A stretch of DNA of 62,399 nt, the filler included, from Rhabdomonas costata (Eukaryota), in the NCBI GenBank assembly GCA_019059605.1. It is 31 parts of 31 records of this genome, joined end to end, with 100 filler letters (N's around TTAATTAATTAA, not from the genome) between each part and the next. Parts side by side here need not be neighbours in the genome. Positions count along the whole stretch, not along the records: positions 52,404 to 54,318 come from JAHMHO010007422.1; 30 more parts are not named here. The stretch is one strand, 5' to 3'. How positions within the stretch are numbered: position 1 is the first letter of the stretch; each line of letters begins with the position of its first letter. Shown here one piece after another: positions 4,897-62,179 of the stretch. The notes under the pieces were generated by a model that had not been told where the DNA came from, ran no database searches, and saw only the letters and a program-made list of their open reading frames with translations. The position numbers and the translations under genes are program-made.

Positions 4897-5096
4897 TTTG
4901 GTGCGACCTACCGGCCTCAGCAGTGTGAATTTCTTTTGTACCTCCTACCGTGTGTCCATTTTTTCTACCGACGTTGAAAGAAAAGGGGTTTATTTCGAAG
5001 GTTTTTGTTTATTTCTACCGCTTTTTTACTACCGGTTTCCATGGAGAAGAAATTCTTTTGAAAAAGGAACCCCCACGCACACATACCGAGAGAAAA

Positions 5097-5950
5097 ATGA
5101 GTGCACCCCCGCAGTCCCCTACCGTGCCCCATGCAGCCCCGTCTTCTTTTAACGAAGCCCCCGCAGTCACCAGACCCTTTACCCCCGAACTACTGGGAGA
5201 AGCAATCACACTAATGGCTCAGAACCAGACCCATCTAATGACCATGATGCAAAACTTTGTACAAGCTACCGGTGCCTCTTTCCAAGCGGTCTCAGGCTCA
5301 CGTTCAGCTGAAGCCTCAGGACTCAGGAAACTACAGGAAAAAGATCCTGAGTTCGAAAAGTTTGACGGCAAGCTAGAACACTTCATGTACTGGCTGGTTA
5401 GAGTGAACGAAAGAAAATGCCAGCGAGAAGTCCCAGACCAAGTTGCCATCCGCTACGCCCAGATGGCCTTTGGAGACGCGGGACGAGGCATCTTCGCTAA
5501 CGGGCAAACCTTCACCTCATGGGACCAGTTCACAGACTTGCTAAAGGCGCAACGCAACCACCTTGTGCAAGCAAGGTCGGGATACAGTCCAACGCGCGCC
5601 GGATCCAGAGGCATCACCACCTCCACAGGTAGGAGCCACGTAAGTGTTCCCGCAATATCGTTAGAGTGTGACACGCACTACCTAACGAAGCACTACCATT
5701 ATCAACATATCTACGAGCTAACGCACAATGTTAAGATGTACAACGGAGATTACCCTGCCTACCAAGCTCAGTTCAAAACATACGTGGATGCCCTACCGGA
5801 ACGCTTCCGTACACCCAACTTGGTTTTTGATTTCATGCAAGGCATGGAGTCCTGGCTTGCTCACAAAGTTGCCAAGAAGAACCCCGTCACCATTGAAGGC
5901 GCTTACGAGATTGGATGGGAAATTTTCAGGGAGCCAAGACCACCCCACAG
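5097..5950 (+). mobile_element. gag: Ty3/gypsy LTR retrotransposon gag (3'-truncated by contig end), with a 126-bp in-frame insertion
   Basis: Intronless ORF after the PBS with capsid-like motifs: FEKFDGK..FMYWL, FTSWDQFTDLLK, Y.AQF..Y, FMQGM..WL...V....P.TIE.AY. Confidence 0.8.
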
Positions 5951-49586: not shown

Positions 49587-52403
49587 TTGACCGATAAAAG
49601 CGAAACGTTTGTAACGAAAAAGCTGAGGGTGGGAGGGGCATGGGGTGTACGTTTCCTCCATCCAATGCTTCCACACACCGACACCCCCCTCTCCTCAGAA
49701 ATGAGGGCCGCCGCTGAACACAGACTGGTACCCAGGTACCTGATGCGCACCCCATTGATTCACGCCAAAATAGATACGGGCTCTCTACCACCATTTGACT
49801 CCAACATATATTAAGCTCACTATAATACTGTGCCTCTGCGAGGGTGCTCCAAGGGGAGCGGGTATGGGGTGGAGCGGTGTGGCAGCCCCGCCCCTACCGT
49901 TAAGGTATGGCAAGCAGTTCAGGAGCTTGGGCATTCCCAGACCAACAATGAAAAAATGAAACAGGACATGCTTTTTCCACTCCCCATTTTCAATGTTTGC
50001 AAAATGACAAAGCGGCGGCAGCATCCATCTCATCGGCAACAAGAGGACAGGAGGTATTTTGTTTTTGAAGGGCGACCTGAGTTAATAAAAGGATCCAAGT
50101 CACAAACTACCTTTGACCTTAAGAAGGCAATGCGGTGCTCTCAGAAAGTCCCAAACCAACAGACACACAATATAACAAGCGGGTGGCCAAGCGAGCTGTA
50201 CTAGGCCACAACAGCTGAAGTCATGGCGGGCCTCAATGCCGTTGCAAATCAGACGCATACAACCACCCAACCCAAACACACCCACCACNNNNNNNNNNNN
50301 NNNNNNNNNNNNNNNNNNNNNNNNNNNNNNNNTTAATTAATTAANNNNNNNNNNNNNNNNNNNNNNNNNNNNNNNNNNNNNNNNNNNNGGTGTGGGTGGG
50401 ATACCAGGTGCCCACAGTGTGGTTTGGCTGGGGAATAAGAAAAAGCCATGATTCCCAACAGAACACGGATGCTCCGTCAGTAGGTCGGTCGGTCTGTGGC
50501 TCCATTCCGATACAGAATATCCATGGAGCACAAACTCCCGGCTGAGGGTGTAAGGACTAGCACTTCAAGAGGTCTGCTGGAAAGACGTCAAGCCAGCTTC
50601 GGACGCGTCCCTTCCCGTGTCTTCTTTTCTCTGATCGCTTCTCTTTGGACTTGCCCGTGATTCCCAGCCATTCATGGAAGAAAAGAACAAACGTTAGCCA
50701 CCCCCTATCGTGTGGTTCCCTATGTGGCTCACAGGTGGGCGAGACCCGGGGAACGAAGCGCACCTTTGAGCAGCTGTAGCAGCGCTGAGCTGGCGGGGCT
50801 GTGCTGTGTTTCATTTACCCCCTTCCCCGGACGTGCGGTCGACATTGAACCGTGGTTTTTTTCTCGCGAAAACCCTTACTCTTGCACAAGACTCGGTTGG
50901 TTGATGATAGTGGTGCACTAAAACGTTGCTCGTTCTTCTACCATCCCTCATCAACATACACACTCACGCCAGAACGAACCAGAAGTGAATTTTCGGTTTT
51001 CACCTTTTGCCGAATCTCTTTTTGCACCTTTCTGAACCCTTGTGGGACGTTGGGCCATCCGACATCTGCAGTCCCCTGGCGCAGCTGCCGTCGTTCGTTG
51101 GGATGCATGTCATAGCCACTTTCCCAGACCGAAGTCACTGGCAGGAGAGTTCTTTACTGATCTTTGCGCCTGAGAGAAGCAGAGAAAGCATCGGTTCTCG
51201 TCCCGTGCACGCTTGAGTGAGACGAAAGAACAACTACCAGAAACGATGGGTGGTGGTCGGTTTTGGTCGCCCCCCCCCTTCCTACCAGATAAGTCGCCTC
51301 CGCCTTTCCCCTTTGGCCGCATGTCAGTCTGGAGGTGAGTGAAGAGGAAGGGGTGAGCGTGGGGTCTAATCCGAGCAATGGCTGCGAAGCTGCAGACCGT
51401 GGCGTTCTTTTTCCGCATCGACCGAGCCCCCACCGGGGAGTGGGTGTGCACTCTTTGACGCCATATTTCTGTTGACCCCCCCCCCTCCTCCGTCCCTCAC
51501 TAGGATTTCCGGTCGTTAGGTCGTGCGATACCGTTGTTTTTGGGCAGTTTTGACTAATTATGAGTGTGCACCCCGCGAAATTCCCACCGGTATGCAATAC
51601 CGAGATTGCGATGGACGTCGAGAAAGACGTCCTCTGTCGACCAATTACACCAATTACTCTTTACAGCGACTTGGGAGGCGCCTTCCATGGTAAGGAACTT
51701 GTAAAATTAAAGCTGAAAACTGGCCTTCCGTGATGCAAAAGACCCTAGGCCTGCTTCGGCATAGCCTTCTGTAAGAAACCGGTTGAGGTCTACCATTTTC
51801 ACTCAGGAGTTTCCGGACTGCTCTGCAATTCTGCAGCACTACAGGAAAGCAGGTTTCAGCACTCTCCATTTTATCTTTTCTCATCCCTTGGTGGGGTCAT
51901 CCCCTCCCGCCTCTCTCCCCCTCATTGGGGGCTTCGGAGTTGCAGCAAAGTAGCCGATTATCTTAATGATCTTGTCGTTGGGGAGAAGCTCTTCCCAGCT
52001 CATCAGGCACCACAGCACACTTTTCGGAAAAGAATCTTCAGCATACGAAGAATCCGTCCATCGTCCATCGTATACAAGGCTTGCTCAACGGCGCAGCAGC
52101 AGCCGTTGCAATTACCAGTTCGACACGCAAAGCTTCTGTGATAACCTCATGATAACCTCACGATATCGCCGTGGACACGTTAATTTAAATTACCAAAAAC
52201 CTGAAGCAAAACATGCTGAAACTCCTAGAATAACAGAAAAACAAAGACCTATTGAATTCACAAGCAGACTATCTCACGGTATCATTGTTCTTCAAAACCA
52301 ACANNNNNNNNNNNNNNNNNNNNNNNNNNNNNNNNNNNNNNNNNNNNTTAATTAATTAANNNNNNNNNNNNNNNNNNNNNNNNNNNNNNNNNNNNNNNNN
52401 NNN

Positions 52404-53322
52404 ACCACCTTCCAAAAGAGCATATGTGCCCACACCTCCGCGACTGAGTGCCTGCCGTAAAGCTTCTATCAGCCGCCGTCGTCAGCTGGTCAATTTATAT
52501 CGTGGCAAAAAAATTGTCGTGGAAAGTCGCTGGGGACCGAAGGCCAGGCCAGTCCTGCTGACAAGAAGAGAATATCCTTCGTGTGCATCCATTGCCAGGA
52601 AGCTGGCTTGTGCACATAATGTACAGGTTAGCTCTATGACTGTGCGGCGTGATCTGCGTTTTGCCGGTGCTACTGCTCGCCGACGGCCAAAGGCCGCTCG
52701 TCTGAGGATGGGAGATTGTAAGCAGAGACTGTTGTTTTGCAGACGAGTAAAGGCAGGTCTCAGCTGTACTGACCTTCTGTTCAGTGATGAGAAGTACTTT
52801 GACTGCAATGACCACGGTTGTGCTTGGGAGTGGGTTATGAAGAATGAGTCGGTGCAGCCGCTTGGTCGTGATCGGTGGGCACCAAAAGTTTCTGTATGGG
52901 GATTGATCGGAGTTGGGGTTAAAAAACTTGTGATCCTTCCACAAGGGACCTTAACTGCGGAAGGATACCGCGATCGCTGTCTGAATAAGTCCCTGGATGT
53001 TCTGAAAGGCAAGGTTCTGATGCATGACGGTGCGAGAGTGCACATGTCAAGCGTAGTTGGGGCTTACCTGAGCAAGAAGAAAGTTAAGGTTCTTGAGCAC
53101 TAGCCTCCGCGCTCCCCCGATCTGAATCCTATCGAGAATTTGTGGGGAATCCTTTCCCGCAAAGTGAGCGACTATGGACCAACAGACGAAAAAGAGCTAG
53201 TGAGGTTTGTGCGAAAAGCGTGGGATGAATACCCACAAAGTGAGGTTGATAAGCTCGTGCTGAGCTTTCAGCGCCGCGTTGTACAGTGCATTGCTAACAA
53301 AGGAAGAAAGGTGAATCTGTGA
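52404..53322 (+). CDS. Tc1/mariner-IS630 superfamily DD35E transposase, main part (in-frame TAG at 53101-53103)
   Basis: VSSMTVRRDL (HTH), LFSDEKYF (D1), VWGLIG, LMHDGARVH (D2), EH*PPRSPDLNPIENLWG (E, 35 residues after D2), SFQRRVVQCIANKG; ends TGA at 53322. Confidence 0.93.
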
Positions 53323-53521
53323 TGGTGATTACGTGCGTATATTTTGCAGAAGCTGGAACGGAGAGGTCTTTCTAAGCACAAGTGTAAGGTTATGCGATAG
53401 TTTGTGACGAATAGATTTTGGGTGTGTGGATTGCACGCCGAAGGCGCGGAAATTTTTTTATGAATTGGCCCTTTTAGATTCGTCTTGTCTTTGCCTGCTG
53501 TGTTTTTGTTATACATGTGAC

Positions 53522-53983
53522 ATGCCCAACAACTCGCTCCGCCATGAATGGGGGAGTCAGCCTACCAGTGGTAGAGATAACCGCACTACCAATCGGCGCT
53601 GGAGTAAGGACCGCAAAAGAGGCAGGCCTGCTCAATCTGGTGCGGAGCGCATGAGGAAGCTGAGGCTTAAAAAGACCCGTGTGCAGCTGCGAATTGAGAC
53701 TGCAGTCCTCTTTGCCCGCCGTGAAATTAAGGCAGGACGGTTACCTGCTCGCCGCAATCCCAAAAAGCATGTGTTGAAGTCAGGGCAGCACGTTCGGTAC
53801 TGCCCCCTTGGGTATGATGAGCCTGTGCTGAGAGGCACTGTAGTGAAACTTTTTCAGTCGCCCGCCGATCGTAAATCGCAGTTTGCGTGCAAGCTTGTGA
53901 TTGTGCAGCGTGATCGGAAGGACCTGGAAAGGGACAAGCGTCTGTCGAAGCTTGTTGCTCTCCCTCCTGCAAATGTATACTGA
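53522..53983 (+). CDS. Uncharacterized 153-aa basic protein (AT-hook-like KRGRP; C-terminal SH3/KOW/Tudor-like segment)
   Basis: Intact intronless ATG-TGA ORF filling the non-transposase part of the unit. R/K-rich. Motifs RKRGRP..SGAERMRKLR and LKSGQHVRY...V.RGTVVKL. Confidence 0.7.
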   Translation: MPNNSLRHEWGSQPTSGRDNRTTNRRWSKDRKRGRPAQSGAERMRKLRLKKTRVQLRIETAVLFARREIKAGRLPARRNPKKHVLKSGQHVRYCPLGYDEPVLRGTVVKLFQSPADRKSQFACKLVIVQRDRKDLERDKRLSKLVALPPANVY

Positions 53984-54069
53984 TGTGCTTCTACTGACTG
54001 GTTTATCTGCAGCGTCACAGCTTTTTTGTTCGTCCAATGCCTGTTTCTTATGCATGCCCAAAGGGCAGA

Positions 54070-54318
54070 ATGACCGATGTCGGATTTTATCTGTGTCATG
54101 AATGGCACCGGCAGGGTAGAACAATCAATCGCATCGCTAAGGATTTAAAGGTTGCCTGGGATACGGTTCGCCATCATCTTCGGCAATCAAAACCACCTTC
54201 CAAAAGAGCATATGTGCCCACACCTCCGCGACTGAGTGCCTGCCGTAAAGCTTCTATCAGCCGCCGTCGTCAGCTGGTCAATTTATATCGTGGCAAAAAA
54301 ATTGTCGTGGAAAGTCGC
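54070..54318 (+). CDS. N-terminus of the same transposase (first HTH); continues at 52404 via the terminal overlap
   Basis: MTDV...WHRQGRTINRIAKDLKVAWDTVRHHL is a paired-like HTH, in frame with the 52426 ORF through the repeat. Full length ~346 codons. Confidence 0.88.
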
Positions 54319-54418
54319 NNNNNNNNNNNNNNNNNNNNNNNNNNNNNNNNNNNNNNNNNNNNTTAATTAATTAANNNNNNNNNNNNNNNNNNNNNNNNNN
54401 NNNNNNNNNNNNNNNNNN

Positions 54419-56333
54419 CGCGCATGGGCCCACACAGCGGTCCGTCGAAAGACACTGACACAAAAAATTTACATTCCTGTATTTCTCCAAGGCTCGCTTC
54501 ATCTATCTGATGACGCGGCAACGCGTCCGCTGCAACATTTAGCCTTCCAGGAACATCAGAAATCTTCAGAGTATATCTCTGCACCTTTTCTAGACATCTA
54601 ACGTGTCTTGGAGACGGTATATGTTTCTTCTTTAGGTAACTCAACGCTGAGTTATATGTGTTCAATATAACTTCTGCTCCCAACAATAATGCATCCACTC
54701 CTCCAGTGTATCCACCAACCCTAACATTTCCTTCTCGTGGACCTGGTAATTCTTTTCTGCCGCAGACATTTTTCTCGACCGGAACGCCACAAAGTGTAAC
54801 TTCCCGTCGTCACCTTCCTGCGACAGTGCGTCTCCAATACCCACTTCTGAAGCATTGTTTTAAAGCACCATCGGCTTCCGAAAGTCTGGTATTACAGAAC
54901 AATATGCTTTAGCAGTCTGTCCTTTAGCCTCTAAAACACAGTCCACTTCGCTTCACTCCAAACCCATTCTCTTTTATTTTTAATCAGGTCCTTCAAGGGT
55001 GCTGCCGCTGTGGTGTAGTACTTCACTAAATTCTGGTAAAATCTACACAGTCCTAAGAAGCTTTTCACGTCCACCGGGTTCTTCAGCTGCGCCACTTATA
55101 TGTACATGAGCTTTCCATGAGGCTGTTGCCTGATTCCATTCCTTCCCACAATGAAACCACAGTACTCTACCTCTGACTGAGCAAACGCCCATTTGTACAG
55201 ATTTTCATATAGCTTTTCTTTATCCAACCTCTGTTATAGCACTTGCAAAGCCTCGAATGAAATCAATGGTCAGCTGAAATGTCACTGGGGCGTTACACAC
55301 GGCGAACTGCATCACCAAAATCTGGTAGTATCTGTACTTTGTCTTAAATGCCATCCGCTCCACATGATCTGTGTGCATCATAATCTGGTGAAATCCTGCC
55401 TGCAATTCTAACTTTAAAAACCATTTAGCTTTGACCGAGTGATCAATCATCTCGTCTATCCGTAGCATTTGGTACAAATCCGTGACATTAATTGCTTTTA
55501 GCTGTCTGTAGTCCACACACAGTTTCAATTTACCGTTGACTTTTGGCACGAAACGCACTCCAGCTCCGTAAGAAGAGGTTTCTGTCTCTATGAAACAGAG
55601 CTCCTGCAAATTTTTTGGGGTCTCTGGCCTTTCCGCTGTCTCGCTCTGCCTCCAACACTCCAGTGGTGGGACAAGTGATACGGAAAGAATCTATAACTGG
55701 TAACGTCTGAATCTCATATATCCATCCGCTTCTCCACACTTTAACAAAACGAAGTTTCCAATCAAATTGGTGTTGTAGCCGGATCACGAACGGGTATCCA
55801 AGAACCACAGGGATCGCCGTATCTATCACACTCAAGTATAACTTTACAGGCATTACACACAGCATTCCACCGATCCTCACGAAATGAGTCACAGGGAGTC
55901 CTTCAACATTGTTCAATATTACTGCGAGATTCTGATGAAGCGGGAACAGCTGTAGCCTCAAACGCTGCACCACCTCTCCATTATAAAGGAGTCCAACAGA
56001 GCTCTCAATTTGATAGTGCCAACCCACAAAGGCAGAAACAATAGCGGCTGGTGGGATGGGGTCTGGTGGAGTACCGACAAACCCATCCCCTTCTTTGCCC
56101 ACTTTTTGGAAGGGCAGCACAAAAAGTGGTACTGGGCAACTTCACTTGCCACGGCCGATGTTGCTGACGGCTACCTCCTGCCGTTATTCTAACAAGTCCT
56201 CAGATAAAGCATTCTCCGAAATATGTTCTATCACAACACTCAACACACAAAGCAGCGCTTTATATTGAGTAAAAGAGTCAGACCGTTCACTCGAGAACTT
56301 ACATTTGGAACTTCCATCACTACCATCTGTTAT
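54419..56333 (-). mobile_element. pol: Degenerate Ty3/gypsy pol (protease-RT-RNase H)
   Basis: RALLDS (protease); YGAGVRFVPK.NGKLKLCVDYRQL, GFHQI, AFKT, MQFAVCNAPVTFQ (RT); GIGDALSQ..VAFRSRKMSAAEKNY.VHEKEML, G..NVAADAL (RNase H); multiple frameshifts. Confidence 0.92.
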
Positions 56334-60218: not shown

Positions 60219-61092
60219 CCAGCACTGGGAGGGAAGACTGCGCCTCTCGGACACCTTCTTCGTTCGAAGTCTCTTCCAGTGATCCACGTGCTGACAAAGG
60301 GCACCCATTGCTGCGAAGTCCACAATCCCCGGAGGGAGAAGCCCTCCCCCACTCCCGTAGCCCCGCAAGTCCGAACACCCCAACNNNNNNNNNNNNNNNN
60401 NNNNNNNNNNNNNNNNNNNNNNNNNNNNTTAATTAATTAANNNNNNNNNNNNNNNNNNNNNNNNNNNNNNNNNNNNNNNNNNNNGGTTGTGGTGGATCTC
60501 GATCATGGCCACGATGCACCGCACGCTCCACTGCCCATCCTTGGGGTGACGTCCGAGGTTGAGCTCCCGGAGAGCCTCCCGAGGATTGTTAGAATATCTG
60601 TGCCATCATGACAAGAACGAAGTTTACATGGCAAACACGCCATACCATAACATCACAGCCCTAGTGTGTGCGTACCCATGGCCGTTTCTTTGGCTGAATG
60701 CAATTAAGAAACCAACGCACAGATCTGTCAAGGCTGGTTGTACAATCCCCTAAGGAATGCTAGCACCGTTCATTGCCTGCAATGTTCATGCGCCTACATT
60801 CCTAATTAATTATGTTTCCGGGTGGGGCGGCAGGGATGCCATGCATTCGGGGTGAAACATGCAAAGCGCTTTTAAACTAACGACCCACTAGTATCTCGTT
60901 CAATGATTTTCAGTAGTAAAATGGGAACCGACATGGAGAGGTTTCACAGCATCTTGAGACCAGTGAGATACAACTGTTCAACACCTCACTCTCACCCCCC
61001 CAAAAATAAATAGCACCATTTTTTATCGTTTTTTACCTGATGTGCATGCATCAATGAGGCGCGTGTAGGACAGGCCGGTCTATCAAACAGAC

Positions 61093-62179
61093 CTATAGAA
61101 GAGCCCTTTGGCGTAGTGTAGCCCAGGATCCATGCGGGCGCGGTTCAGGGCCTTCTCCGCAGCCTTAAAGAACTTCGGGCACTCATACAGCCGCCCCGCG
61201 CGTCGGAGCAGCTGCACAAACTGCACCTGAAGTGGGACGGCACCGACACCGCACATCAATGACCATGCATCCTCTTGTCCAATTCGGTGAAGTCGGGAAA
61301 TAGACAAAACCAAGGTCATATTGAAACAGCTGACTGGTTCTCTGGCCAGTGATGTCCCACACAAAGACAAACACGCTTGCAAAGGGCAGATAGACGATGT
61401 CGAACAGACAAGCGAGGTAGTACAGCAATGAACACAACTGCAAAACTGCGATACCGCTGCACCAAGGCACTCAGAGAGAAGGGGCGCAAACGAGAGAATT
61501 CTCACCAGCGCTTCATGGTTGTTGGGCTTCTTCTCCAGAAGCTGCTGGAAGTGGTATATGGCATCCTCAAACTTGTTCTTCCTGTTGTTTTTCATGCATC
61601 CATTACAACCGAACACAACGTTTGCGATGATCAACACGCGGAGGTACTGGATGAAACGCTGACGGACCACATGCTGTGAGCAAATAGGCATTCGGCCTGG
61701 GAGAAGGGAAGCACTTCAGAGAGGGTAAGATACCCACAAACCCATAGTTAGCTCCATACCCCAACGGACGTTCTGAGATGCGACACTTCCGACAATTGGG
61801 CTACAGTGCCAAACGTTCGAGAGGATACCAAGATATCAGTGCAGAAGCGGAGAGCGGAGCACCACACAAATAAGTGAATGAAGAACTCTGCAAGGATAGA
61901 CAACAGGGATTTGTGACATGGGAAACCGCTAGAAATGGAAATACAAATCGACATCGCAGAAAAGGAAAGCAATTTTTGTGAGTGCATTGACAGTCAAGTC
62001 TTTGTGGAGAGGGAGGGGGGAACGAAGCTGCATGCTGCCGGATACCGGAACATCAGGTCGGCGAGCATCATCGTGGCCTCCTCGTTGGAGGGATCCACGC
62101 GGAGCAGGGCGTTGCACTGCAGCTCACAGCCGTCGAGCTCCCCCTTGCGGAGGTAGAGCTTGGCCAGCGCCAGCATGCT
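61093..62179 (-). CDS. TTC21B: Intraflagellar transport protein IFT139 / TTC21B (TPR protein); exons 62179-62046, 61581-61506, 61226-61093
   Basis: MLALAKLYL...DGCELQCNALLRVDPSNEEATMMLADLMFR|KNKFEDAIYHFQQLLEKKPNNHEAL|VQFVQLLRRAGRL...DPGLHYAKGLFY matches the conserved TTC21/IFT139 segment. GT-AG introns are in phase. Confidence 0.9.

Follow-up and report, generated by a model that had tools for sequence, protein, structure and literature searches.

The question raised by this locus is whether a short, very basic open reading frame (ORF) lying beside a transposase gene of Rhabdomonas costata is a true gene and, if so, what its product might do for the element that carries it. The ORF occupies positions 53522 to 53983 on the plus strand of a 62,399-base stretch of the assembly GCA_019059605.1 (hereafter, the window), and both the ORF and the transposase lie on one contig, JAHMHO010007422.1, at 52404-54318. 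We believe, with a probability of roughly 55%, that this partner ORF comes first in a Tc1-derived element of two genes and 1788 bp, arranged head to tail, and that its product is a putative transposase cofactor. The unit is an unusual, recurrent two-gene form of a Tc1-like element, joined head to tail and devoid of terminal inverted repeats, and the partner protein represents a new family, the fold of which is predicted with confidence. The partner gene would have been inherited jointly with the transposase across deep divergence and under purifying selection. Its protein would serve as a nucleic-acid- or chromatin-binding cofactor through its basic tail, helical hairpin and barrel, and the role might consist in binding the DNA or chromatin of the element or the target, in nuclear import, or in assembly of the transposase complex.

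The partner gene ("O153") begins with ATG at 53522, ends with TGA at 53981-53983 and contains 153 codons before the stop. The initial annotation had described an intact ORF of 153 amino acids rich in arginine and lysine, and this description was correct: the protein has 40 lysines and arginines among its 153 residues and 13 aspartates and glutamates, its computed isoelectric point (pI) is 11.5, and all of the motifs quoted at that time were located (RKRGRP at residues 31-36, AERMRKLRLKK at 41-51, LKSGQHVRY at 85-93 and LRGTVVKL at 103-110). Opposite the transposase, the minus strand has chance ORFs of 187 and 149 amino acids. ORF length alone is thus no evidence of a gene, and in our judgement what lifts the partner ORF above chance is that its homologs are full-length and keep the start and end.

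A scan of 1.84 billion representative sequences returned 11 relatives of the partner protein with E-values from 2e-39 to 2e-6, nine of them at E <= 1e-10 and two at E <= 1e-30, whose lengths were 144-200 amino acids. These relatives were 35-55% identical, had the same start and end, and were free of stops; ten of the 11 covered nearly the full query, and the remaining one (P0012) aligned from residue 29. The best pair aligned over 152 residues, starting at Met1 and reaching the last residues, at 51% identity. A word-indexed search recovered just one of the 11 among 41 candidates. In the alignment of 12 sequences, nine columns of the core family were invariant (W27, R43, R48, A61, R66, G88, Y93, G105 and R130), and in an alignment of 24 sequences R48 and A61 were still invariant and R66 nearly so. 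The annotation's exclusion of TnpB/Fanzor, Rep and capsid proteins agrees with the Pfam search, in which no family matched the 153-residue protein at E <= 1, Tudor, KOW and SH3 included. The best E-value of the partner family profile in a sequence search of the PDB was only 0.46. Fused or longer forms of the partner were absent among 892 candidates, which is weak evidence, and in the Protein Atlas the top feature score was 0.77, for an unnamed viral cluster and under the tool's lead level.

The substitution pattern pointed in the same direction as the homologs. In the distant branch of the family, synonymous sites were saturated (proportion of synonymous differences 0.65-0.88, against 0.18-0.33 for nonsynonymous ones), and the ratio of nonsynonymous to synonymous rates (dN/dS) of the partner gene in the three unsaturated distant-branch pairs was 0.40, 0.095 and 0.135. 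The transposase gave a similar value, 0.12 for the pair L015-L023. The initial annotation had held that a lack of homologs and a dN/dS near 1 would mark a chance frame; we found 11 relatives and a dN/dS of 0.10-0.40. Because of these full-length relatives and of the distant-branch ratios, the partner ORF is a real and conserved gene under purifying selection, which belongs to a family new to Pfam. The claim of selection therefore stands on the family, on its homologs and its dN/dS. The other ground that had been offered, that the ORF stays open while the neighbouring transposase carries a stop, has to be dropped: one nonsense codon in 357 compared with none in 153 has no statistical weight, so it is no evidence of stronger selection on the partner gene than on the transposase.

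The window needs some care in reading, for it consists of 31 separate contigs of 1910-1936 bp each, in roughly descending order of length and joined by N44-TTAATTAATTAA-N44 linkers (for example, at 52304-52403 and 54319-54418). Features on adjoining contigs are therefore not physically linked. In one of the 31 contigs, the one with the partner gene, the ends overlap perfectly over 127 nt: the terminal direct repeat at 52404-52530 is identical to that at 54192-54318. It follows that the unit is 1788 bp long and closes on itself, the contig having no flanking host sequence, and that the two transposase pieces on either side of the ORF belong to a single gene. In practical terms, neighbours in windows of concatenated contigs need not be linked, and "transposase on both sides" means here one gene in a self-overlapping unit. 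On one strand, the order in the unit is the partner gene, a 53-nt spacer, the transposase and a 199-nt spacer. The T-rich 53-nt spacer between the partner stop and the transposase ATG lies at 53984-54036 (plus strand; 51-68 nt in relatives). The 199-nt spacer from the transposase stop to the partner start lies at 53323-53521 (plus strand) and has neither an inverted repeat nor a stable fold (RNA fold z-score 0.10). No second copy of the unit was found within the window.

The transposase gene has 357 codons in all. Its N-terminus of 94 amino acids, which includes the putative helix-turn-helix (HTH) region and aligns with homologs, is encoded at 54037-54318 (plus strand) and continues at 52531 by way of the 127-nt overlap; the rest is encoded at 52404-53322 (plus strand), with the stop TGA at 53320-53322. 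Pfam assigned DDE_3 to it at E 8.4e-13. HTH_Tnp_Tc3_2 scored 31.2 bits against a cut-off of 31.5 (E 2.6e-7), several weak HTH matches fell on residues 22-50, and precomputed Pfam annotation places PF01498 on the homologs. The catalytic residues are encoded at 52786 (D), 53026 (D) and 53134 (E), the second D and the E being separated by 35 residues. Since the family profile matches the catalytic domain of Sleeping Beauty at E 1.9e-34 and Mos1 at E 1.9e-12, the enzyme is, by these profile matches, a Tc1-like DDE transposase, and it has 592 homologs at E <= 1e-10. The window copy carries an in-frame TAG at 53101-53103 (plus strand), codon 285 of 357 and upstream of the catalytic E. All 13 homologs aligned at this codon have a Trp instead, the W of W-P-x-R-S-P-D-L-N-P-I-E. 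As the stop falls between the second D and the E, the encoded transposase is truncated and lacks the catalytic Glu, so the window unit is probably no longer autonomous, and any amplification of it may stem from recombination, not transposition.

The coupling of the ORF to a Tc1/IS630-type transposase, which the initial annotation had proposed from this one locus, is supported by related loci fetched by way of the transposase. When metagenomes were scanned with the transposase profile, 135 relatives were confirmed, and 80 loci were kept. The hidden Markov model of the partner family matched an ORF on the same strand in 11 of these 80 loci initially, and iteration raised the number to 15 (L001, L002, L003, L005, L006, L010, L013, L015, L023, L030, L033, L037, L039, L042 and L050). 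The partner ORF was always on the transposase strand, and it lay 51-68 nt upstream wherever the ends of both genes were placed, except in L003 and L005, in which the distances to the first ATG were 120 and 109 nt, respectively; the L003 transposase is without its N-terminus, and the L005 partner gene is split. Across 12 units, the identities of the partner and the transposase co-varied (Mantel r 0.91, p 1e-4). The predicted complex of the intact L001 transposase with its partner scored 0.00, which gives no verdict and counts neither way. Decayed units were also seen: the L005 partner is split into two ORFs at 1266-1813, and frameshifts or fragmentation affect the transposase of L047/L048 and L038.

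AlphaFold 2 (AF2) was used to predict the structure of the partner protein. The model of the window copy, built on the 12-sequence alignment, had a mean predicted local distance difference test (pLDDT) score of 76.8. Residues 1-32 were predicted to be disordered, followed by helices at 40-50 and 53-70 and by barrel strands within 90-147 at pLDDT 80-91. A second AF2 model, of the L015 member that is 21% identical to the window copy, reached a mean pLDDT of 79.2 and had the same order of tail, hairpin and barrel. The protein is accordingly predicted to start with a basic, disordered tail, to continue with a helical hairpin rich in arginine and to end in an SH3/Tudor-like barrel. The tail comprises residues 1-39 (53522-53638, plus strand; pLDDT < 50 at 1-25 and 27-32) and contains the invariant W27 and the non-conserved RKRGRP. 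The hairpin spans residues 40-70 (53639-53731, plus strand); it is the most conserved part of the protein, with R43, R48, A61 and R66 invariant in the core family. The small beta-barrel, residues 85-150 (53774-53971, plus strand; strands 90-93, 103-112, 124-130 and 144-147), holds the invariant G88, Y93, G105 and R130, and in the alignment aromatic residues are also common at positions 110 and 121.

An AlphaFold and Foldseek comparison had been proposed together with the sequence motifs, and it did return a barrel, with weak matches. Foldseek against the PDB gave no match to the window-copy model at E <= 0.001, the top ones being SAWADEE tandem-Tudor domains at E 0.012. With an exhaustive structural aligner, residues 79-153 matched best with Tudor, chromo-barrel, PWWP and KOW domains at Z 5.4-6.7; the top match was the TDRD3 Tudor domain (Z 6.7, root-mean-square deviation 2.9, 56 residues aligned), and 83 chains had Z >= 5 and none Z >= 8. 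For the L015 model, SAWADEE and Tudor domains were again best (Z 4.5-5.0). No match to the partner fold at E <= 0.001 was found in the viral structure library. These structure scores support an SH3-like small barrel, and a family assignment is not given by them. Tudor, SAWADEE, chromo-barrel and KOW domains resemble the window protein in that residues 79-153 superpose on this SH3-like fold, but the protein has no membership in these families at the sequence level and its Z scores lie in the common range. The initial annotation had read an AT-hook together with an SH3/KOW/Tudor-like segment, and a basic helix before the latter. The barrel, as a prediction of good confidence, and the helix are borne out, the helix being a conserved basic one in both the alignment and the AF2 models. 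The AT-hook is not: the window copy does resemble the minor-groove motif of HMGA type in its R-K-R-G-R-P, but a G-R-P core at this position is present in only one of the 12 aligned members, the window copy itself, in a stretch with pLDDT < 50. AT-hook identity at the family level was rejected on these two grounds.

Terminal inverted repeats, the usual mark of a Tc1 element, were sought in the unit and in 52 related loci. The window unit had no inverted pairs of 14 nt or longer; with a seed of 7, only short pairs at chance level appeared, and its best inverted match was below that of the shuffled controls. Most of the 52 related loci were likewise not above controls, and the exceptions were palindromes, either of A-run/T-run type or short GC ones, located in spacers in some cases and within coding sequence in others. 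Palindromes of an A-run followed by a T-run were observed at L010 2382-2401, L027 1804-1819, L047 1856-1888, L004 1673-1704, L031 2096-2124, L029 1377-1398 and L040 1557-1572; all those examined fall outside the transposase ORF, one coincides with a contig end or start in each of L010 and L027, and they may be origins, terminators or junctions. No telomere repeats were found in the window unit or the 52 loci, by which a reading as a ciliate nanochromosome was ruled out. The search for bacterial-type signals gave one promoter-like and two terminator-like sites on the contig, none above shuffled sequences, and the terminator-like ones were on the wrong strand.

The head-to-tail arrangement, in turn, was common. 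Perfect end overlaps of 49-141 nt were found in 15 of the 80 loci, with units of 1.45-2.16 kb. Of the 52 closest loci, 32 had head-to-tail repeats, which were perfect in 14 and, in the other 18, imperfect or short of the contig end. Contigs from different assemblies were circular permutations of one another. Imperfect second copies were present in L031 (609 nt, 91%), L043 (402 nt, 96%) and L025 (155 nt, 85%), and such a diverged copy after the first speaks for tandem arrays, with mixtures of variant circles as a possible source. For the window unit we favour a tandem array collapsed by the assembler over a circle; the window contig alone fits both.

Several results weigh against our reading of a two-gene element with a dedicated cofactor. 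Close pairs account for the Mantel signal, and Spearman's coefficient is just 0.28. The loci were fetched through the transposase, so that adjacency is partly a matter of construction. Searches of DNA from the partner side confirmed none of 12 pattern matches in viral contigs and none of 398 in the metagenome (with a 5-sequence alignment), and the context on that side consists of P0012, a sequence identical to the gene of L001, and one contig-length match (P0005/P0022, ENA, 2004 bp). The fold matches are weak, with Z < 8, which according to the tool may reflect only a common arrangement. Sister branches of the same transposase clade carry other small basic ORFs without significant profile similarity to the partner family, so the barrel protein is not essential to the whole clade. 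Without terminal inverted repeats, the mode and even the fact of transposition of the unit are in doubt.

These points leave room for other explanations. That the partner is a chance open frame, or a conserved non-coding part of the transposon, might be argued from the chance ORFs of similar length opposite the transposase and from the empty Pfam search, but the stop-free, full-length homologs with the same start and end and the dN/dS have already refuted it, two independent AF2 folds are confident, and we give this explanation hardly any chance. A small circle of about 1.8 kb outside the chromosomes, either an episome or a persistent excised form, is a more serious candidate; the partner would then be a protein that coats, partitions or packages the DNA, for which a pI of 11.5 would be suitable. 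The perfect overlaps in the window contig and in 15 of 80 loci have the k-mer size of an assembler, contigs of different assemblies are circularly permuted, inverted repeats are missing, and contigs of the family hardly ever exceed one unit: among the 120 matches listed, 113 transposase homologs sit on contigs of <= 3 kb, and the 13 partner homologs listed are all on contigs of 559-2303 bp, compatible with the unit size. A single circle should, however, give second copies that are 100% identical, unlike those of L031, L043 and L025, even if variant circles could mimic cases of 99%. The unit also has no replication initiator gene, the transposase being all that Pfam sees, and no relatives were found in 2.9 million viral contigs. 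We consider the circle unlikely.

No better odds are given to the possibility that both genes were domesticated and now form a host tandem gene array, as in the head-to-tail genes of protists, with the partner as a host chromatin protein and no mobility left. The lack of inverted repeats and the purifying selection on both genes would fit such an array, as would the short T-rich spacers before both genes and the eukaryotic nature of other contigs in the window. A domesticated gene is nevertheless hard to reconcile with a premature stop at an invariant Trp of the window transposase and with other copies broken by frameshifts (L038, L047/L048 and L005, for example), and the fetched metagenome loci include numerous lineages that diverged deeply (30-70% identity) and have different partner ORFs, which looks more like a selfish-element family than like a single host gene. 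A bolder form of the two-gene reading, which we hold only tentatively, is an undescribed Tc1-derived class in uncultured microbial eukaryotes. Such elements would have lost their terminal inverted repeats, would persist or spread as head-to-tail concatemers of their own making or else as 1.8-kb circles, and would encode, besides the transposase, a small dedicated basic protein. In the window unit this would be the protein with the hairpin and the Tudor/SH3-like barrel, and it would read the element junction or a chromatin mark and direct the transposase. Of all these explanations, the two-gene head-to-tail element with a putative cofactor is the one that we prefer.

Known systems help to place this element. 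Tc1/mariner is the textbook minimal transposon, and classic Tc1 elements consist of one gene between two inverted repeats. The window transposase is like those of the IS630/Tc1/mariner group, such as Tc1 and Sleeping Beauty, in its putative N-terminal HTH region and its DDE domain, but the window unit differs from them in a second conserved gene upstream of the transposase and in its head-to-tail joining, and terminal inverted repeats are undetected in it and in the 52 related loci. If this were true for the whole branch, it would represent a new layout of Tc1/mariner, with a co-evolving second gene, no inverted repeats and head-to-tail or circular units of 1.8 kb in many independent assemblies.

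Bari1 is the closest structural precedent for the proposed array. It is a unit of about 1.7 kb with a single gene and terminal repeats. In a 2022 review, this Tc1-like element of Drosophila melanogaster is described as forming a heterochromatic cluster of about 80 precise head-to-tail copies, which may have arisen, according to one proposal, from a circular transposon by way of rolling-circle-like concatemers; the array is reported from one species only, with no comparable example described (PMC8834629). The likeness lies in a Tc1-like unit whose end is joined to its start in the same orientation, as in the 127-nt overlap of the window and in 32 of 52 loci. The difference is that the head-to-tail form is seen here across many diverged lineages, together with a partner gene. 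If our reading is true, the Bari1 array would gain company.

The closest working analogy for the partner protein is the second protein of PIF/Harbinger elements, whose DDE transposase relies on a separately encoded Myb-like DNA-binding protein of the same element. Both cases would combine a DDE transposase with a small partner protein. The transposase superfamily is a different one, however, and a Myb/SANT helical domain there stands against a helical hairpin and an SH3-like barrel here. The predicted fold opens the question of whether a Tudor/SH3-like reader may guide a DDE transposase. In the literature listings and abstracts searched, there was no description of a Tc1-like transposase with such a partner gene or of recurrent head-to-tail units.

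The sister lineages offer another family of small ORFs. A family of about 90 amino acids was present in 15 loci just upstream of the transposase, starting with M-G/V-R-P-R/K-K-G (L007 130-408, L016, L021 258-554, L025 554-832, L049 723-1001 and 10 more). G-R-P is found in 5 of 14 of its members and R-P-x-x-G in 13 of 14, which makes this family more AT-hook-like than the window protein. When the partner family was compared, profile against profile, with the other families of small ORFs, the best probability was 24%. By eye, a basic helix with R-x4-R, as in E-R-M-R-K-L-R, is common to all the partner ORF families compared (that of the window, L010-L050, L020/L022, L041/L044 and the 90-residue family), a likeness that basic composition could produce by chance.

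The transposase profile was also run against 185,579 prokaryote species genomes and 2.9 million viral contigs, in which none of 100 pattern matches and none of 25 matches, respectively, was confirmed. Among plasmids, 30 records matched, all from Deinococcus; those listed were annotated as IS630-like ISDra3 and were 24.6% identical. A bacterial insertion sequence origin of the clade was rejected as far as the prokaryote, viral and plasmid scans reach. Because the prokaryote and viral scans were empty and other contigs of the window are eukaryotic, the evidence points to microbial eukaryotes as the hosts.

Expression signals were considered around the gene starts. In the 45 nt upstream of 36 gene starts from 22 units, the mean pyrimidine fraction was 0.57, compared with a background of 0.47, and these short T-rich spacers appear compatible with polycistronic expression and trans-splicing. 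In the window, 53476-53521 and 53991-54036 are pyrimidine-rich, and across gene starts AG often stands just before the ATG, which resembles trans-splicing acceptor tracts. There were no Rfam matches in the whole window, so the unit contains no spliced leader RNA, 5S or other RNA gene.

Some features outside the unit complete the picture. In L011, a 129-nt internal tandem repeat of about six copies that are 86-88% alike fills the spacer at 1911-2688 and yields a repetitive ORF of 338 amino acids. On other contigs of the window, there are a reverse transcriptase with broken frames on the minus strand at 54419-56333 (RVT_1, E 3e-8), a Ty3 capsid-like ORF at 4950-5949 (E 4.9e-5) and a TTC21/IFT139 ARM repeat at 61083-61691 (E 2e-18), from which we conclude that the assembly comes from a flagellated or ciliated eukaryote.

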